This document shows, in pieces, positions 1,923 to 8,419 of a DNA stretch of 46,392 nt; positions within the stretch are counted from its first letter, which is position 1; each line of letters starts with the position of its first letter. The position numbers were made by a program, and so were the translations under genes. This DNA comes from Flavobacterium sp. (GTDB lineage: Bacteria > Bacteroidota > Bacteroidia > Flavobacteriales > Flavobacteriaceae), in assembly GCA_044237565.1 (NCBI GenBank), contig JBIIFA010000001.1, positions 1 through 46,392 of the forward strand, read 5' to 3'. The notes beneath the pieces are model-generated. The model did no database searches. It was given only the letters and a program-made list of their open reading frames with translations, and was not told the origin of the DNA.

Positions 1923-1993
1923 GGCGTCGTGGCCGAGCGGCTAGGCTGGGCTCTGCAAAAGCTCCTACTCCGGTTCGAATCCGGACGATGCCT
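1923..1993 (+). tRNA. tRNA-Cys(GCA), CCA not encoded
   Basis: Acceptor stem GGCGTCG/CGATGCC, anticodon arm GGGCT-CTGCAAA-AGCTC, T-arm TCCGG-TTCGAAT-CCGGA, discriminator U. Confidence 0.96.
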
Positions 1994-2315
1994 CTAAAAG
2001 AGATACAGAAATGTGTCTCTTTTTTTTGTGGAAATTTTTAGAAAAAATTAATTAAAGTGGTGTTCGAATCCGGACAATATGATTCTAAAACCTTCAAGGA
2101 AACTTGAGGTTTTTTTTATGGAAATTTTTGAGAAAAATTAATTAAAGTTATGTTCGAATCATGGTGATAATTCTAAAGCCTTCAAGGAAACTTTTGGGTT
2201 TTTTTGGTGGAAATTTTTAGGGAAAATTAATTAAAGAAGTGTTCGAATCCAGAAGATATGATTCTAAAGCCCTCAAGGAAACTTGGGGGTTTTTTTGGTG
2301 GAAATTTTTAGGAAA
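1973..2315 (+). repeat. Four tandem ~89-bp units, each tRNA T-loop (GTTCGAATC) + GAAA-loop terminator + TGGAAATTTTT...AAAATTAATTAAAG
   Basis: GTTCGAATC starts at 1973, 2062, 2152 and 2241 (periods 89, 90, 89). The last unit is truncated. Confidence 0.9.
1996..2027 (+). terminator. Intrinsic terminator of tRNA-Cys
   Basis: AAAAGAGATACA-GAAA-TGTGTCTCTTTT followed by a T run. Confidence 0.85.
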
Positions 2316-2359
2316 GGTTTCGTTCTAAAAAGCGATGCCAGGTTACTTAATAGTTTTGT

Positions 2360-2492
2360 TTTTAACGTTTGGCCGCTTGGCGATGTGGCGGATTAAGGAA
2401 GCCTAGACTTTTGGTTAAGCGCAAAGTTTGATATGAGTCAAAAGCCTTGATTTCAGGAATATTTCACCTATTTTTTATATATATTGTTAGGC
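2360..2492 (-). repeat. attC-like site downstream of the CPBP gene
   Basis: On the minus strand GCCTAAC (RYYYAAC) ... GTTAAAA, 133 bp, internal imperfect hairpin. Similar size and GTGGCGG/CAAAGTTT motifs to 3423-3554. Confidence 0.65.
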
Positions 2493-2524
2493 TTAGTTTC
2501 TTTTAACATTATATTCTGATTGGA

Positions 2525-3400
2525 TTATTGGAAGTGCCTTTCAAAGAATCCTTTCCGTTTCAAATTAACTATAAATAACAAAAATACCAATTGAATAATC
2601 ACGTTTGAATATTCGACAATCCAGTTAGAAACGCCTGAGATTTCAATATTGTATATAGCGCCTAATTTCCAATTAGTCCCAAAAAATGAAAAACCTACCC
2701 AATTAACTCCACTATGCATTCCAACACTTAACCAGATTGACCCTGAGTAATAATAGAGCAAAGAATAAATATAAGAGGCAACGAAAAGACTTGTGAAATA
2801 TCCTATATTAAAGTCGTTGAGCACTAAGTGACCTAAAGCAAAAATTAATCCCATTAAAGTGAAAATGATATGTGGGTTCATATGATTTTTTAACTTCTCG
2901 ATAGGGTATGCTCTAGTTCCTAATTCTTCAATGAAAGAATTCCAAAAAATAAAGCCAATTAGGAAATAAGCATAATAACCTAAGTAGGTAAGAATGGGTA
3001 TATTTGAACTGACGGTGGGTGAATAGTTAACGGTTTCTGCGTTGAATATTAAAACGAGATATTTTAAGGAAACTAAAATTGCTCCGATAACGAATCCAAT
3101 AAATAAGGTTGTCCATATTTTTGACTTAAAACCAAGTTCACTAAACTTCTTTTGATGGATATATTTTTGAGCTAACCAAATGATCCCAATTGAACATATT
3201 CCGAATAGAAAAAAGAAAAAGACATTCCCGAAACTAACATCAAAGTTAAGGCCAGTATTCTCTCGGATATTTATTCCAAATTGCTCAGCAATTTTAATCA
3301 ACGGCAACATTATTGCAACTGATAAAAAAACAATCACTATTACCGTAATCATTTTTACAGATAGGTGTCTTTGATATATTTTTTTTAGTTTTTCTGTCAT
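2525..3400 (-). CDS. CPBP (CAAX/Abi) family intramembrane metalloprotease
   Basis: Multi-TM protein with EExxxR (IEELGTR), FxxxH (FALGH) and HxxxN (HSGVN) motifs. Confidence 0.88.
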   Translation of the reverse strand: MTEKLKKIYQRHLSVKMITVIVIVFLSVAIMLPLIKIAEQFGINIRENTGLNFDVSFGNVFFFFLFGICSIGIIWLAQKYIHQKKFSELGFKSKIWTTLFIGFVIGAILVSLKYLVLIFNAETVNYSPTVSSNIPILTYLGYYAYFLIGFIFWNSFIEELGTRAYPIEKLKNHMNPHIIFTLMGLIFALGHLVLNDFNIGYFTSLFVASYIYSLLYYYSGSIWLSVGMHSGVNWVGFSFFGTNWKLGAIYNIEISGVSNWIVEYSNVIIQLVFLLFIVNLKRKGFFERHFQ

Positions 3401-3422
3401 TTTGAGTTTAGTATGTTATTAA

Positions 3423-3554
3423 GCCTAACGTCTTGCATATTTATGAAGTGGCGGCTTTTGAAAACGGATGTTTCATTTTAGCACTTAACTTTCTTTGATG
3501 CACAAAGTTTACTTTTAGCACCAAACCCGCTTTTTTGCCAAACGCCTGTTAGCA
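3423..3554 (-). repeat. attC-like site between the two cassette genes
   Basis: On the minus strand TGCTAAC begins 10 bp after the stop of the propeller gene and ends in GTTAGGC (GTTRRRY), 22 bp before the next ATG. Length 132 bp. Confidence 0.72.
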
Positions 3555-3564
3555 ACAGTTATTT

Positions 3565-4677
3565 TTAGTTTGTCCAAGGCTCTTTGTGTTTAGCGTCCAT
3601 AAACTTTTCTCCATCAAAAATGCATAGTCCTTGCCAACTTCCAAACCAAACTTGTCCTTTTTTGTCCTCGAGAATACTTTGCGTGACATTAGATGTTAAG
3701 CCAACTTCGGTTGTGAATTGTTTGAAATTATTGCCATCATATCGGTAAACACCATAACCTTCTGCCGTAAACCAAATATTCCCTTGACGATCTTCATAAA
3801 AATTGTAAGTTTCTTCACCTGTAATAATTCCATCCTTTGTGAAATTGGTGTACGTTGTACCATCAAATTTGCTCACACCGCCATTAAAAGTTCCAATCCA
3901 AACATTTCCTTTTTTGTCTTCTAAGATATCTGCAACGTTATTATCGGTAAGTTCATTTTTAGCTGTTAAATGAATAAATTCTCCGTTTTTATATTTAAAA
4001 ATCCCATTCCCATCAGTAGCAAACCACATATTTCCATTCTGGTCTTCTATGATTTTAAAAACCAATTTGTCAGATAGCATAGGTTTTGCATTTTCGACTT
4101 TTGAAACTGGCAGCGAAAAAGGTATAAACTTTTTTCCATCAAAATGACTAACTCCTCCAATAGATCCAACCCAAACGAGTCCACTTTTGTCAATTGTCAA
4201 GCCCCATATTTCCGCATCTTCACCTTGCAATCCTTCTTTCTTTGAAAATGTTGTAAACTTTTTACCATCGTATTTTATGAGTCCTTCGGATGTCCCAAAC
4301 CATAAATTACCTGCTTTGTCTTCTACAATCTCTAAAACCCTAAAATAAGGACTGACATCTGCAATTATCATTTTTTCAAGTGTTTGACCATTATAGTGAA
4401 TAATCCCATCTCCATTTGTTCCAAACCAAAAGTTCCCTTTTTTGTCCTGATGCATTGTTCTTACAAACTCTCTTACCATTCCATTTAAGTTGGTATGAAT
4501 TTGAGGAAATGTCGTGTTTTGTTTTAAAAAGAGTGGTTGGGTGTTTACTTGATTTTCAGTTGTATCAGTAACAGATTTTTCTTTCACTTGTCCTGTGCAA
4601 GATGTGATTTGAATTGTTAGAAGAACTAAAATTAAGTTCTTTGCGTTTAATATCATCTTATCACTAATTTTTATCAT
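3565..4677 (-). CDS. Beta-propeller lipoprotein (two-component regulator propeller repeats, stand-alone)
   Basis: Repeated EDKxGNxWFGT blades and lipobox ITSC. The start is probably ATG 4677 or 4656 rather than 4743, which lies beyond the cassette boundary. Confidence 0.85.
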   Translation of the reverse strand: MIKISDKMILNAKNLILVLLTIQITSCTGQVKEKSVTDTTENQVNTQPLFLKQNTTFPQIHTNLNGMVREFVRTMHQDKKGNFWFGTNGDGIIHYNGQTLEKMIIADVSPYFRVLEIVEDKAGNLWFGTSEGLIKYDGKKFTTFSKKEGLQGEDAEIWGLTIDKSGLVWVGSIGGVSHFDGKKFIPFSLPVSKVENAKPMLSDKLVFKIIEDQNGNMWFATDGNGIFKYKNGEFIHLTAKNELTDNNVADILEDKKGNVWIGTFNGGVSKFDGTTYTNFTKDGIITGEETYNFYEDRQGNIWFTAEGYGVYRYDGNNFKQFTTEVGLTSNVTQSILEDKKGQVWFGSWQGLCIFDGEKFMDAKHKEPWTN

Positions 4678-4694
4678 AATGTCGGTTTTATAAT

Positions 4695-4764
4695 TGTTGC
4701 TAACTAGTATATACCAGCTATAAAATGGCTCCAATCCACCCAAAAAAGGTTGGCTTTATCTAAC
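4695..4764 (-). other. attI-like site at the head of the cassette array
   Basis: On the minus strand GTTAGAT (4764-4758) ... TATATACTA-GTTAGCA (4704-4698). No attC-type arm on the outer side. Confidence 0.4.
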
Positions 4765-4786
4765 AAACGTCAAATTGTATTTTATT

Positions 4787-4794
4787 CAAATATA
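4787..4794 (-). promoter_or_regulatory. -7 promoter element (TATATTTG) pointing into the cassette array (Pc-like)
   Basis: CAAATATA on the plus strand, 83 bp upstream of the first cassette boundary. Confidence 0.55.
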
Positions 4795-4844
4795 ACCAAT
4801 TAAACGCATCAATAATTAAAAAGTGTTTTTAAATACGAGCTTAT

Positions 4845-5522
4845 TTACTCCATTTTCTCCAATGCCTTTTTTACCATTTTTTGGTCGCTTGGAAACCAAC
4901 CTTGAAGCATAATCGTCATTCCAAAAAGTATCAATAAAATGCTTATTAGTTTTTTGATATTCAAAATGTTTTTTGGTGTCATTTTGTGTTTTAATTGTTT
5001 GGCTAATAGCATTTTACCCATATCAACAAACAAATAGGTCAAAATTACAGAAGTGAAAAAAGTAAGCATTCTTGAGGTTTCTAATTCTAGTTTTGGTCCA
5101 ACCGTAATTAGTATTAAAAACCAAAAAAGAAGCACGCCAACATTAATAAAATTCAATAAAAATCCTTTGATAAAAAGCGCACGATAATTCTTCTTTTGGA
5201 ACACTATTTCAACATCGTCTTCGTTGGATTTTGAGGAAATTTTTCTAAGTTTTATAAATGAAATCAAACCATAAGTAAGCATTAAAATTCCTCCAAAAAT
5301 AAAAATTGCAGGATCATTTTTCAAGCTTTGAATCAATCTATAACTACTGAAATAAGCGATTAAAATAAAGAAAACATCTGCTAAAACAACGCCTAAATCA
5401 AACACAAAAGCAGCTCTAAATCCTTTAACTGCACTTGTTTCAAGCAACACAAAGAAAACAGGGCCAATAAGAAAACTTAAAAAAATTCCGAGAGGAATTG
5501 CTGTTAAAATGTCTTGAATCAT
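4845..5522 (-). CDS. LysE family translocator
   Basis: About 6 TM segments, N-terminal IGPVFFVLLETSAVKGFRAA and GFLLNFIN motif. Confidence 0.88.
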   Translation of the reverse strand: MIQDILTAIPLGIFLSFLIGPVFFVLLETSAVKGFRAAFVFDLGVVLADVFFILIAYFSSYRLIQSLKNDPAIFIFGGILMLTYGLISFIKLRKISSKSNEDDVEIVFQKKNYRALFIKGFLLNFINVGVLLFWFLILITVGPKLELETSRMLTFFTSVILTYLFVDMGKMLLAKQLKHKMTPKNILNIKKLISILLILFGMTIMLQGWFPSDQKMVKKALEKME

Positions 5523-5562
5523 TAATGAAATTTAGAGTCGGATTATTATAAATATAAAAATA

Positions 5563-6240
5563 TTATCTATTACTTTGATTGATTGAGCCGCCTAAAACCG
5601 TTTTTTGATTAATTTGTATCGGTTTGCCAAAAATTGTGATTGTTCCACCAGCTCTTACCTTCGCATCTACCAATTCCGAAGCGCGAACATCAGCAGTTCC
5701 ACCAGCGTTAATACTCACATTTGTTTGCTCGGTTTGAAGGTCTTTTGCGTTTAAAACTCCACCTGATGAAATAATAATATCCTGGTTTTTAGCCGTTCCT
5801 TCTAAGTTAATTATTCCTCCAGAAGTAGCACGAATACTTAATTTTTGTACCTCTAATTTTAATTTAATTTCAGCTCCTTCTTTTGAATTTAATGAAAATG
5901 AAATTTGCTTTATTGCTTTTTCACTTGAAACATAGGAACCTTCGCAAGCATCTAAACTTTGAATGTTTTTATAATACAATAACGCTGTAACATCCTCGCC
6001 TGATAAGAATTTACCAATTGGCATTCTTACTTTTAATTCGCCGTTATTGTTAACAATTTCAACTTCTGAACTGTTTTTTCCTGACAATTCAATTTTACTT
6101 TCTTCTGATGGAATCAACTGAAGTGAAATTTTATCAAAGACTTTTACAGCATCAAAATCGCCTAAATTTTTAGTGGTAGTTTCTTGCGAAAAACTAATTT
6201 GAGTAATTAATAATAGTATAAATAGTTTATAATATTTCAT
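5563..6240 (-). CDS. Head GIN domain (DUF2807) secreted protein
   Basis: Signal peptide, LGDFDAVKV start and repeated beta-helix segments (SSGGxxNA, AGGTI). Overlaps the rnr stop by 14 bp. Confidence 0.8.
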   Translation of the reverse strand: MKYYKLFILLLITQISFSQETTTKNLGDFDAVKVFDKISLQLIPSEESKIELSGKNSSEVEIVNNNGELKVRMPIGKFLSGEDVTALLYYKNIQSLDACEGSYVSSEKAIKQISFSLNSKEGAEIKLKLEVQKLSIRATSGGIINLEGTAKNQDIIISSGGVLNAKDLQTEQTNVSINAGGTADVRASELVDAKVRAGGTITIFGKPIQINQKTVLGGSINQSNR

Positions 6241-8419
6241 TGTTATTCTTTCTTATAAAATTAAAATCCAATTGTTTTTTAACTAAATCTGCGTTTTTAA
6301 CTTTTACATAAATCTCATCACCCAATTGCAAAATATTTTGAGTGGTGGCGCCAACTAAAGCATATTGTTTGTCATCAAAAGTATAATAATCGTCCTTGAT
6401 TTCACGAATTCTTACCATTCCTTCGCATTTATTTTCGATAATTTCAACAAAAATTCCCCATTCAGTAACCCCTGAAATTACTCCCAAAAATTCTTGATCT
6501 CGGTGGTCTTGCATATACCGAACTTGCATATATTTTATACTGTCGCGTTCAGCGTGGGTAGCGAGATTTTCCATTGTGGAAGAATGTAAACATTTAGTTT
6601 CATACGTTTCTTCATCAGCAGATTTTCCTCCATCTAAATAAAATTGCAATAATCGGTGCACCATTACATCAGGATACCGACGAATTGGCGATGTAAAATG
6701 AGAATAATAATCAAAAGCCAAACCGTAATGTCCAATATTATCTGTCGAATATTTGGCTTTACTCATACTTCTAATCGCTAAAGTATCTATTAAATTTTGT
6801 TCTTTTTTACCTTGTACATCATTTAATAAAGTATTTAAAGACATTGAAATATCACCCTTAGATTTGAAATTTATACTGTAACCAAATTTAGAAATTACGT
6901 TTTGAAGCGCAATTAATTTATCTTCATTTGGCTCATCGTGAATTCTGTAAATAAACGTTTTCTTTTGTTTCCCTATGAATTCCGCCACTTTTTTATTGGC
7001 TAAAAGCATAAATTCTTCAATCAAATGATTCGCATCTTTCGACATTTTGAAGAACACACCAATTGGTTCGTGATTGATATTTAAATTAAATTTTACTTCT
7101 ACTTTATCAAATGAAATAGCGCCTTCGGCCATTCTGTTTCTTCTAAAAATTTTAGCTAATTCATCTAATTTTAAAGTCGCACTTACAATTTCATCGGAAA
7201 CTACATAGGATTCTCCGGTAATTGAAGTTTCAATTGGAATTGTATTGTCTTTGGTTTCAATGATATATTGTGCTTCTTCATAGGCAAATCGCTGATCAGA
7301 ATAAATCACGGTTCTACCAAACCAATTGTTCACAACTTCAGCTTTTTCTGTAATTTCAAAAATCGCTGAGAAAGTATATTTTTCTTCATTTGGTCGCAAA
7401 GAGCACGCAAAATTCGATAAAACTTCAGGTAACATTGGTACTACTCTATCTACTAAATAAACAGAAGTTGCCCTTTGGTAGGCTTCGTCATCTAAGATTG
7501 TTCCTTCTTCTAAATAGTAGGAAACATCCGCAATATGGATTCCAATTTCATAGTTTCCGTTTTCTAATTTTTTAAATGATAACGCATCATCAAAATCTTT
7601 GGCATCTTTTGGATCGATTGTAAAAGTCAAGGTATCGCGCATGTCTCGGCGCTTTGCAATTTCACTTTCTTGAATTGAAGTATCTATTTTTTGCGCATAA
7701 ACTTCTACTTCTAATGGAAATTCTGCAGGTAAACCATATTCTGCTAAAATAGCATGAATTTCAGTATTGTGTTCGCCGGGTTTCCCTAAAACTTTTATTA
7801 CAGCACCAAATGGACTGTCGGCTCTTGTTGGCCAATCTTCAATATGAACTAAAACTACATCTCCGTTTTCAGCATCACCTAATTTATCTTTTGAAATAAA
7901 AATATCGGTGTACATTTTTGGATTTGCAGTCGATACAAAGGCAAAATTCTTTTGAATATCTATTACACCTACAAAATCAGTTTTCTTTCTTTCTATAACT
8001 TCTATAACTTCTCCTTCGGCACGTTTTCCTTTTCGTCTGTTATACACATACACTTTTACAGTATCACCATCTAAAGCGTGGTTTAAATTATTAGTCGGAA
8101 TAAATACATCTTCTTCAAAATCTGTACAAACAAAATAAGCGGTTTTTCTACCCGTCATATCAATTTTACCTTCGTAATAATCTTTACTTGCTTCTACAAC
8201 TAAATATTTTCCTGGTTCTATTTCGTCTATTTTTTTTTGAGCTACGAGAATCTTTAAATCTTTAATAATTTGATTTCTACTTTGTGTATCATCTAATTCT
8301 AATTTAATTCCTATTTGCTTATAATTAAATGCTTTATTGGCATTTTGTGCTAATATTTTTACTATTTTATCTGTTAAATCAGCTTGTTTTTTGACTGGTT
8401 TTCTTAGTCTTTTACTCAT
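6227..8419 (-). CDS. rnr: Ribonuclease R
   Basis: RNB motifs TIDPKDAKDFDDA, HIADVS and HFTSPIRRYPD, with C-terminal S1 domain. Confidence 0.97.
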   Translation of the reverse strand: MSKRLRKPVKKQADLTDKIVKILAQNANKAFNYKQIGIKLELDDTQSRNQIIKDLKILVAQKKIDEIEPGKYLVVEASKDYYEGKIDMTGRKTAYFVCTDFEEDVFIPTNNLNHALDGDTVKVYVYNRRKGKRAEGEVIEVIERKKTDFVGVIDIQKNFAFVSTANPKMYTDIFISKDKLGDAENGDVVLVHIEDWPTRADSPFGAVIKVLGKPGEHNTEIHAILAEYGLPAEFPLEVEVYAQKIDTSIQESEIAKRRDMRDTLTFTIDPKDAKDFDDALSFKKLENGNYEIGIHIADVSYYLEEGTILDDEAYQRATSVYLVDRVVPMLPEVLSNFACSLRPNEEKYTFSAIFEITEKAEVVNNWFGRTVIYSDQRFAYEEAQYIIETKDNTIPIETSITGESYVVSDEIVSATLKLDELAKIFRRNRMAEGAISFDKVEVKFNLNINHEPIGVFFKMSKDANHLIEEFMLLANKKVAEFIGKQKKTFIYRIHDEPNEDKLIALQNVISKFGYSINFKSKGDISMSLNTLLNDVQGKKEQNLIDTLAIRSMSKAKYSTDNIGHYGLAFDYYSHFTSPIRRYPDVMVHRLLQFYLDGGKSADEETYETKCLHSSTMENLATHAERDSIKYMQVRYMQDHRDQEFLGVISGVTEWGIFVEIIENKCEGMVRIREIKDDYYTFDDKQYALVGATTQNILQLGDEIYVKVKNADLVKKQLDFNFIRKNNNEIL

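Follow-up and report, generated by a model that had tools for sequence, protein, structure and literature searches.

A two-cassette array behind a recombinase leader in Flavobacterium: a likely worn-out piece of a second kind of integron in Bacteroidota

Results

Organization of the locus

The DNA analysed here (the window) comprises positions 1 to 46,392 of contig JBIIFA010000001.1 from a Flavobacterium sp. (assembly GCA_044237565.1, 80.6% complete), and this report concerns a small array at 2360 to 4794 that a first-pass annotation had described as two integron-like cassettes without an integrase. On the minus strand, lysE (5522-4845) is followed by a leader, gene 1, site 1, gene 2 and site 2; beyond site 2 lie repeats of a tRNA end and tRNA-Cys itself, the latter on the plus strand. 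The short motifs are all found where that annotation had placed them on the minus strand, and the Pfam matches agree with its naming of a propeller protein and a CPBP protein (Table 1). The lipobox of the gene 1 product was spotted by eye in the sequence, and the most likely start of this gene is the ATG at 4677, a position kept in homologues. The second R'' lies 29 nt past the gene 2 stop. The two spacers, announced as having about 130 bp, are indeed present, being however of 124 and 125 nt from AAC to GTT. In the whole genome, a perfect 10-nt inverted pair starting with GTT surrounds 5 of 1190 open reading frames (ORFs) of at least 150 aa, three of them being cassettes (both window genes and one on contig C109) and the other two T-run matches. 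The read sets closest to this genome are lake and freshwater metagenomes.

Table 1. Features of the array, with minus-strand motifs given from their 5' end
Feature	Position	Strand	Remark
TATATTTG	4794-4787	minus	promoter-like -7 element, candidate Pc (cassette promoter)
GTTAGCAACA	4704-4695	minus	R' of cassette 1
TGTTGCTAAC	3557-3548	minus	motif after gene 1 stop
GTTAGGCTTA	3429-3420	minus	R' of cassette 2
TAAGCCTAAC	2495-2486	minus	motif after gene 2 stop (second R'')
GTTAAAA	2366-2360	minus	motif at array end
Candidate remnant of the last codons of the recombinase gene, decayed	4809-4831	minus	15/23 nt match; probable
attI-like leader, ending at the G|TT crossover (4704|4703)	4702-4806	minus	near-palindromic box at 4731-4715
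Cassette 1, R' GTTAGCAACA to site 1	3429-4703	minus	near-identical copy elsewhere with other flanks
Gene 1, Reg_prop beta-propeller, 370 aa, predicted lipoprotein	3565-4677	minus	Pfam PF07494, E 3e-35
attC-like site 1, 124 nt, hybrid	3427-3550	minus	join in GCGGG block near 3530-3524
Cassette 2, R' GTTAGGCTTA to site 2	2366-3428	minus	copies in L125 and L123
Gene 2, CPBP/Rce1-like intramembrane protease, 291 aa	2525-3400	minus	Pfam PF02517, E 4e-14
attC-like site 2, 125 nt, probable hybrid	2364-2488	minus	arms resemble different loci

Both genes behave as precisely bounded cassettes

The lysE gene is present in 36 of 36 genomes of the genus, and the DNA downstream of it was examined in 20. The gene content of the interval between lysE and tRNA-Cys varies among these strains, as the first-pass annotation had proposed to check, the locus being empty in 14 of them (no ORF of 70 aa in 49-628 nt), occupied by different genes in five and rearranged in one; the first site and leader models gave no match in these 20 stretches. 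In the nearest relative, G024 (97% identity in lysE), a RelE/ParE-type toxin-antitoxin pair and a Fic gene occupy the locus, with a weak trace of the first part of the leader. A short hairpin site lies alongside these genes (L033:962-2360), and a toxin-antitoxin pair like that of G024 is found upstream of a gene-2 homologue in L127.

Gene 1 was found at 183 metagenome loci, 80 of which were kept for comparison, and 43 of these match at 72% or more over at least 900 nt. Among the 43, the 5' end is kept in 22, the 3' end in 23, and both, with readable flanks, in 16. The clearest case is a copy in L131, with 97.5% identity from exactly 4704 to 3546, bounded by GTT and AAC and unrelated beyond these limits. 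Cassette 1 also occurs in 6 of 300 genus genomes, five times with the GTT and AAC limits. For gene 2 there are eight loci, including an 81% copy of cassette 2 over 3428-2478 with different flanks (L125) and a 95% copy (L123); at three loci of 62-68% protein identity and at one more of 68%, the first model detected no site. A search for cassette 2 in the 300 genus genomes, with two candidates scored per genome, gave 0 matches. Fixed synteny in the genus, spacers without homologues elsewhere and the lack of an empty allele, named by the first-pass annotation as fatal to its proposal, were none of them encountered; presence of the genes varies within the genus, the spacers border unrelated genes, and most alleles are empty. 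By these comparisons both genes qualify as mobile, precisely bounded cassettes of the integron style.

At the other end of the array, three decayed repeats of about 90 nt corresponding to the 3' end of tRNA-Cys, together with a terminator-like hairpin after the tRNA, occupy 1973-2330 (plus strand). The copy number of these repeats varies at the same locus in many genus genomes, with the array present or absent. That integration had taken place at tRNA-Cys, with duplication of its 3' end, was ruled out, because the repeats are also found in empty alleles across the genus.

The spacers belong to a family of covarying hairpins

An iterated hidden Markov model (HMM) of the sites gave 287 matches in 171 loci (1.78 Mb) and 0 in a reversed control. 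Of these, 192 were trimmed to AAC...GTT segments of 116-132 nt, and the remaining 95, truncated or differing in length, were set aside. The 7 nt that follow a GTT are complementary to those preceding the next AAC at 6-7 of 7 positions in 75 of 93 cassettes; the same holds within a single site for 7 of 192, and for 662 of 20000 pairs taken at random (3.3%), so that the claim that the R'' of a cassette matches the R' at its own 5' end holds well beyond the window. Neighbouring sites are co-oriented in 195 of 195 cases; the cassettes contain a co-oriented ORF in 81 of 93, an opposite one in 4 and none in 8.

An end-anchored test on 87 dereplicated sites identified a single pairing register (z up to 6.9, compared with a null maximum of 4.2), in which the left arm pairs with the right one at positions 5-17 and 19-24 and a 1x5 loop lies beside the AAC/GTT box. 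Position 18 is a mispair, being A.C in 49 of the 87 sites, which corresponds to G.T on the bottom strand. In an RNAalifold analysis of 70 sites, 14 of 14 pairs show two-sided changes, and 89% of the cells are paired compared with 56% in shuffled and 36-47% in slid alignments, the alignment being also the source of the structure. In 80 of 120 sites, folding is better on the bottom strand. The length, mostly 121-127 nt, and the pairing are kept, and the sequence is not. The sites form a family of covarying hairpins flanking unrelated genes, with R''/R' boxes, a conserved hairpin and complementarity of a cassette's own ends as in attC-type sites. The A.C mispair and the 1x5 loop would differ from the extrahelical bases and unpaired central spacer of canonical attC sites.

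The Rfam search suggested in the same annotation, with Flavo-1 as an example, yielded nothing for the window sites at E up to 1, nor for the sites of two further arrays (16 and 12 sites). Site 1 has no match in annotated phages. Short variants of about 50-96 nt with the same outer stem escape the long-site model (L121:8116, L257:6107, L173:2022, and also L125 after gene 2 and L141-L144). Group IIC introns target attC, and an intron-like end is inserted antisense at TAA|C in 8 of 12 pattern matches; Rfam confirms group II introns at 2 of 6 loci scanned. Such antisense introns at TAA|C of these sites were noted at eight loci, among them L287:15720 and L154:2041.

The leader adjoins the 3' end of a recombinase gene in relatives

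Three further copies of the 110 nt before 4704 are found in this genome, at the heads of arrays on contigs C41 and C109, and among 300 genus genomes 85 have a leader match (E up to 0.01), often a weak one. Forty leader loci were examined, 39 with the leader and 26 with sites by the first model; at 6 of the 40 (one frameshifted), a tyrosine recombinase gene ends where the leader starts. The protein is matched at E 1e-70 or better in 42 of 301 genomes of the order, and 39 loci were analysed. At the 17 closest, sites lie downstream in 13, adding up to 85 sites in 119 kb, compared with 0 sites in 73 kb upstream. Moreover, a GTT crossover site lies 69-126 nt past the recombinase stop in 19 of 23 close recombinases, and the end of the first cassette matches the leader GTT in 10 of 13.

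The element TATATTTG follows the recombinase stop by 10-11 nt in five of six loci checked and was seen in others too. Its form, TAnnTTTG, is that of the Bacteroidota promoter element, and with its conserved position it is a candidate cassette promoter. A sigma-70 promoter and terminator scan stayed at chance level, the scanner covering sigma-70 types only, and the shares in RNA read runs were small (0.05-0.24). In the window (4731-4715) and in the leaders of 19 recombinase loci, palindromic boxes occur about 13 and about 56 nt before the crossover, varying in sequence and often alike within a leader. These palindromes may be accessory binding sites. They were also considered as SOS boxes, and this was rejected, the boxes fitting by eye neither GGA-N5-TCC nor CTAA-N5-TTAG.

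In the window itself, 15 of 23 nt at 4831-4809 match the 3' end of the recombinase gene, with an unchanged distance to TATATTTG in 4 of the 5 genes that could be measured, and an HMM of recombinase end plus leader matches from 4829 (E 2.8e-6); the segment is AT-rich and hence weak on its own. On C109, a decayed recombinase end precedes the leader, and on C41 the last 31 codons are kept with 94-100% identity, the G|TT of a site being fused exactly to a GTT inside the recombinase gene, a fusion seen once only. IntI integrates at secondary sites, and this junction would be the expected footprint of off-target recombination by the enzyme itself. The C41 region (2610-8060, plus strand) consists of two tandem leader-headed arrays with six sites and a seemingly empty first cassette. 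That of C109 (4300-7310, minus strand) shows a leader, a second propeller-type cassette with matched ends and then an amidohydrolase-like cassette that ends in a different, shorter hairpin type.

As the first-pass annotation had stated, the window encodes no recombinase, and the full-length Phage_integrase matches of the assembly are XerD- and XerC-like only. The intact enzyme was not found in this genome (80.6% complete), nor in those of G024, G035 and G018 (88, 85 and 99% complete). The search for a linked tyrosine recombinase succeeded at array heads in relatives, with remnants only in this genome. However, the proposal of an integrase-free array mobilised in trans is not supported in that form, since the leader is what follows the 3' end of a recombinase gene, which relatives have in cis. 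Service in trans is plausible in genomes such as G077 and G071, where the intact enzyme is on one contig and an enzyme-less array on another.

The recombinase

The linked recombinase has 347 aa (P0001), with catalytic residues that are invariant or nearly so, a Phage_int_SAM_4 domain and an IntI-like C-terminus. At the insertion that defines IntI it is about 42 residues shorter than IntI4, residues 249-270 of P0001 aligning to 180-243 of IntI4, and the R-to-H spacing is 89-94 in 135 of 136 measurable relatives. The IntI-specific insertion of about 35 residues (I2 helix) is thus absent. The scores are 202-214 bits for TIGR02249 (cut-off 265), 183-195 bits for XerC/XerD (TIGR02224/TIGR02225, cut-offs 330-335) and 222-225 for the XerA-like NF040815, whose cut-off of 220 is passed. 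A TIGR02249 search of 201 genus genomes gave 0 matches, and is uninformative because the control genomes gave none either. Identity with the host XerC and XerD is 27-31%.

An additional N-terminal module is found in 136 of 151 proteins, as one copy in 118, two in 12 and three in 6, and is predicted to form a small beta-beta-alpha-beta-beta-alpha domain. Its Foldseek ranks 1-4 are the HARP domain of SMARCAL1 (top, E 0.26) and the N-terminal domain of XPB, none being significant (E 0.26-0.87). Pfam HARP matches 1 of 34 members (E 5.7e-5) and DUF5710 matches 13 of 34 weakly. In VIA-align the best Z values, 4.5 and 5.1, belong to eIF1-like folds, with XPB, UvsW and MotA at 3.6-4.0 and no standout. 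The ESM Atlas returned Bacteroidota clusters without a name and with scores under 0.9, and a profile search against PDB sequences gave nothing significant.

A recombinase of 48% identity on a Parabacteroides plasmid (L291) is followed by co-oriented Tdi1 and SMI1/KNR4 immunity genes; the site model found no sites there.

Both window sites appear to be hybrids

The window sites keep the boxes and not the pairing, with 9 of 19 positions paired in site 1 and 5 of 19 in site 2 (mean for mismatched arms, 7.0), and their folds equal those of shuffles (z +0.2 and -0.3 for site 1, +0.7 and +0.5 for site 2). A site in G077 is 95% identical to site 1 from 3530 onward, has a different left arm, pairs at 19 of 19 positions and folds at about -23 to -24 kcal/mol, compared with -10 to -12.5 for site 1. 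Site 1 is therefore a fusion at a common GCGGG block, with the G077 site as the intact parent. Site 2 is a probable hybrid, its left arm resembling L123 (36/40) and L263 (34/40) and its right arm L243 (36/40); the L123/L263 class also scores low in this register (7-8/19), so that the left arm may use another one. The hybrid origin would explain the lack of single-site folding in the window.

Contigs of four independent lake or freshwater runs were compared with the window at a 90% cut-off. In each of the runs X2 and X11, one contig follows cassette 2 and site 1 up to 3530 and continues with about 740 other bases, other contigs matching the window allele; a contig of run X5 joins 3530 to 4702 (the leader crossover). 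This suggests a second allele with a different first cassette. In the simplest history, cassette 1 would have entered at the leader, on the leader side of an older first cassette, and a later deletion between neighbouring sites would have removed the latter and fused the sites.

tet(X) genes in the same system

On a Myroides plasmid (L292:7799-9326), tet(X2) forms a complete cassette of the system, enclosed by a perfect 10-nt end pair and with sites on both sides. On the same plasmid, aadS is preceded by a site pairing at 17 of 19 positions. In Acinetobacter plasmids (L289:4139-6254), tet(X3) comes after a truncated recombinase of the family, TATATTTG and a GTT start, and is followed by a half site, the cassette ends matching at 4 of 7 positions; the 'xerD'/tnpF gene beside it is the truncated member (72% over 238 aa to P0230). 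The accessible part of PMC11615727 describes this xerD only as a site-specific recombinase, credits the spread to ISCR2 and gives no cassette reading there. The tet(X4) gene of an E. coli plasmid (L293:4151-4260) keeps the R'' end, which an intron-like end follows, and no site was detected in the tet(X5) region of one plasmid.

Discussion

Taken together, the window is likely to hold an array of two cassettes headed by the leader of a Bacteroidota tyrosine recombinase, the gene itself being absent from this locus. The cassettes were likely inserted one by one at G|TT, and with both hairpins hybrid and no intact enzyme found, the array has probably lost its mobility. In this mechanism, the recombinase would insert single cassettes at the leader G|TT using folded, single-stranded hairpin sites; the folded bottom strand would be cleaved at the GTT box and resolved by replication as in integrons, the choice of strand would be set by the A.C/G.T mispair, which is conserved, together with a 4-nt bulge adjoining the GTT box, and the N-terminal HARP-like domain might replace the IntI insertion in handling the folded site. 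On this reading the array is likely what is left of a second, overlooked kind of integron, one that also carries tet(X).

Sequence comparison shows the precise cassette ends, the movement of both cassettes between contexts, the covarying hairpins, the recombinase-leader-array layout in relatives, an enzyme lacking the IntI insertion, and site 1 as a hybrid; recombination, folding in vivo and transcription of the array are predicted. Several observations weigh against this reading. For the 22 more distant recombinases, four loci have downstream sites, with 9 sites down and 9 up; the split into close and distant was drawn post hoc, and the site model was trained on the same loci. Among the 87 representative sites, 30 pair at 7 of 19 positions or fewer, so that decay, or the use of another register, is frequent. 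As expected, a cassette found in a new context never brings its upstream site along; the downstream site accompanies it in some close pairs, yet in only 4 of the 17 cassette-1 pairs with at least 88% identity. In the 97.5% pair the site changes exactly after AAC, an outcome not expected under a strict bottom-strand model; group II introns could cause it, and so could a top-strand crossover at R'', which is rare for IntI1 (PMC4792948). The second allele comes from the contig comparison at the 90% cut-off and may belong to another, related organism. The genome is incomplete, so an intact enzyme may be missing from the assembly. HARP binds forked DNA, and the fold comparisons weakly suggest a HARP-like domain, its substitution for the IntI insertion being a lead.

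One alternative, close to the view of the first-pass annotation, is that an intact recombinase, missing from the assembly or borne on a plasmid, still serves the array in trans, with the same mechanism and a difference in present activity only. It would fit the incomplete genome (80.6%), the apparent first-cassette polymorphism in the lake contigs, the enzyme on two Chryseobacterium plasmids (71% identity, with the leader following), the coexistence of intact enzyme and separate enzyme-less arrays in G077 and G071, and the good pairing of other arrays in this genome (16-17/19 at 4 sites). Nonetheless, we regard it as rather unlikely, no close enzyme copy being found in this genome or in G024, G035 and G018, and both window sites folding no better than shuffles; also, the proximal palindrome of the leader has a mismatch, and the polymorphism may be old. 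A different mechanism altogether, a conventional double-strand Xer-type enzyme moving cassettes at short GTT/AAC cores, with hairpins that serve RNA structure, group II intron targeting or cassette genesis, appears improbable. The partner sites of the crossover have only GTT in common, and Xer-type double-strand exchange needs more shared sequence than this, so that the shared part is too little. Furthermore, complementarity joins the two ends of a cassette, as a hairpin in the excised circle requires, and the length of about 124 nt and the pairing are conserved while the sequence varies. These points outweigh the lack of the IntI insertion, the passing of the XerA-like cut-off and not that of TIGR02249, the swap of site cores at AAC between close copies and the group II introns antisense at TAA|C, all of which such an enzyme would accommodate.

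Finally, a canonical IntI of another lineage or the host XerCD could have made and moved the cassettes, with the adjacent recombinase as a bystander, as off-target insertion by IntI can create integrase-less attC clusters (PMC8618304). This seems very improbable given the recombinase-leader-GTT geometry fixed in 19 of 23 close recombinases, sites that are found only downstream, and remnants of the same gene before enzyme-less leaders, including C41 and C109 here. Returning to the array as the product of its own leader-linked recombinase, a broader proposal can be made tentatively, at somewhat less than even chances. Bacteroidota would run a second, independently evolved integron, in which a HARP-type fork-binding domain replaces the IntI insertion, exchange occurs at both site ends (genes thereby gaining new sites, that is, cassette birth), off-target insertion breaks the enzyme's own gene and so seeds orphan arrays with a promoter, like the present one, and tet(X) was first packaged before ISCR2 took it to Acinetobacter and Enterobacterales.

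The locus is a worn example with ordinary cargo, and it records integrase loss, site fusion and a probable replacement of the first cassette. If the interpretation is true, a phylum dominant in water, soil and gut has a large reservoir of genes that went unnoticed, integron surveys depending on the IntI insertion and on proteobacterial attC models. It would also allow the need for the I2 helix in hairpin recombination to be tested directly, and offer a handle on the question of cassette genesis and a mechanism for the origin of tet(X) tigecycline resistance.

Comparison with known systems

A description of the system was not found in the literature searched, most subscription journals and supplementary files lying outside it, and a prior description is possible; the accessible parts of PMC8565304, 10.1101/2024.07.02.601686, PMC13616975 and PMC13063519 do not describe it. 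According to the portion available of 10.1101/2022.02.28.482270, IntegronFinder 2 names just one complete integron in Bacteroidetes proper.

With the XerA/XerC/XerD proteins, the recombinase shares the length of a catalytic domain without the insertion, its best PDB sequence matches being archaeal XerA, together with the NF040815 match. However, it is separate from the host XerC and XerD, patchy in distribution, tied to arrays and extended by the N-terminal domain. With clusters of attC sites lacking integrases (CALIN), the window shares cassettes and at least two attC-type sites, as defined by our own model, without a neighbouring integrase; integrase loss is one proposed CALIN origin (PMC8618304). 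Unlike these, the array keeps a promoter-like and attI-like leader and a gene remnant.

The resemblance to integrons is the most extensive, comprising gene-precise cassettes with matched R'/R'' ends, the G|TT crossover, co-oriented arrays, hairpin sites conserved in structure and not in sequence, and the promoter-like and attI-like leader. It extends to the recombinase, with its Phage_int_SAM_4 domain and IntI-like C-terminus, for which VchIntIA/IntI4 (PDB 2a3v) is tied for the best TM-score by query, 0.65. In relatives, a catalytically complete recombinase is linked to the array, of which a decayed remnant only is left here, and an attI-like GTT site with a matched first cassette is found by sequence at the close recombinases. 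The differences are a leader at the 3' end of the gene, sites that mostly measure 121-127 nt and contain a 1x5 loop by the GTT box as well as a single A.C/G.T mispair, and an enzyme that, compared with IntI, lacks the insertion, stays below the TIGR02249 cut-off and carries one to three copies of an extra domain. Co-oriented, 'inverted' integrases are known, and in the accessible text of the same source the insertion defines IntI, recombinases without it near attC being said to be 'not IntI' (PMC4889954). In PMC8138268, as far as its available part goes, the insertion is 'not fully conserved' in an integron-like subgroup, yet essential for integron function. The system thus works like an integron but fails the IntI test.

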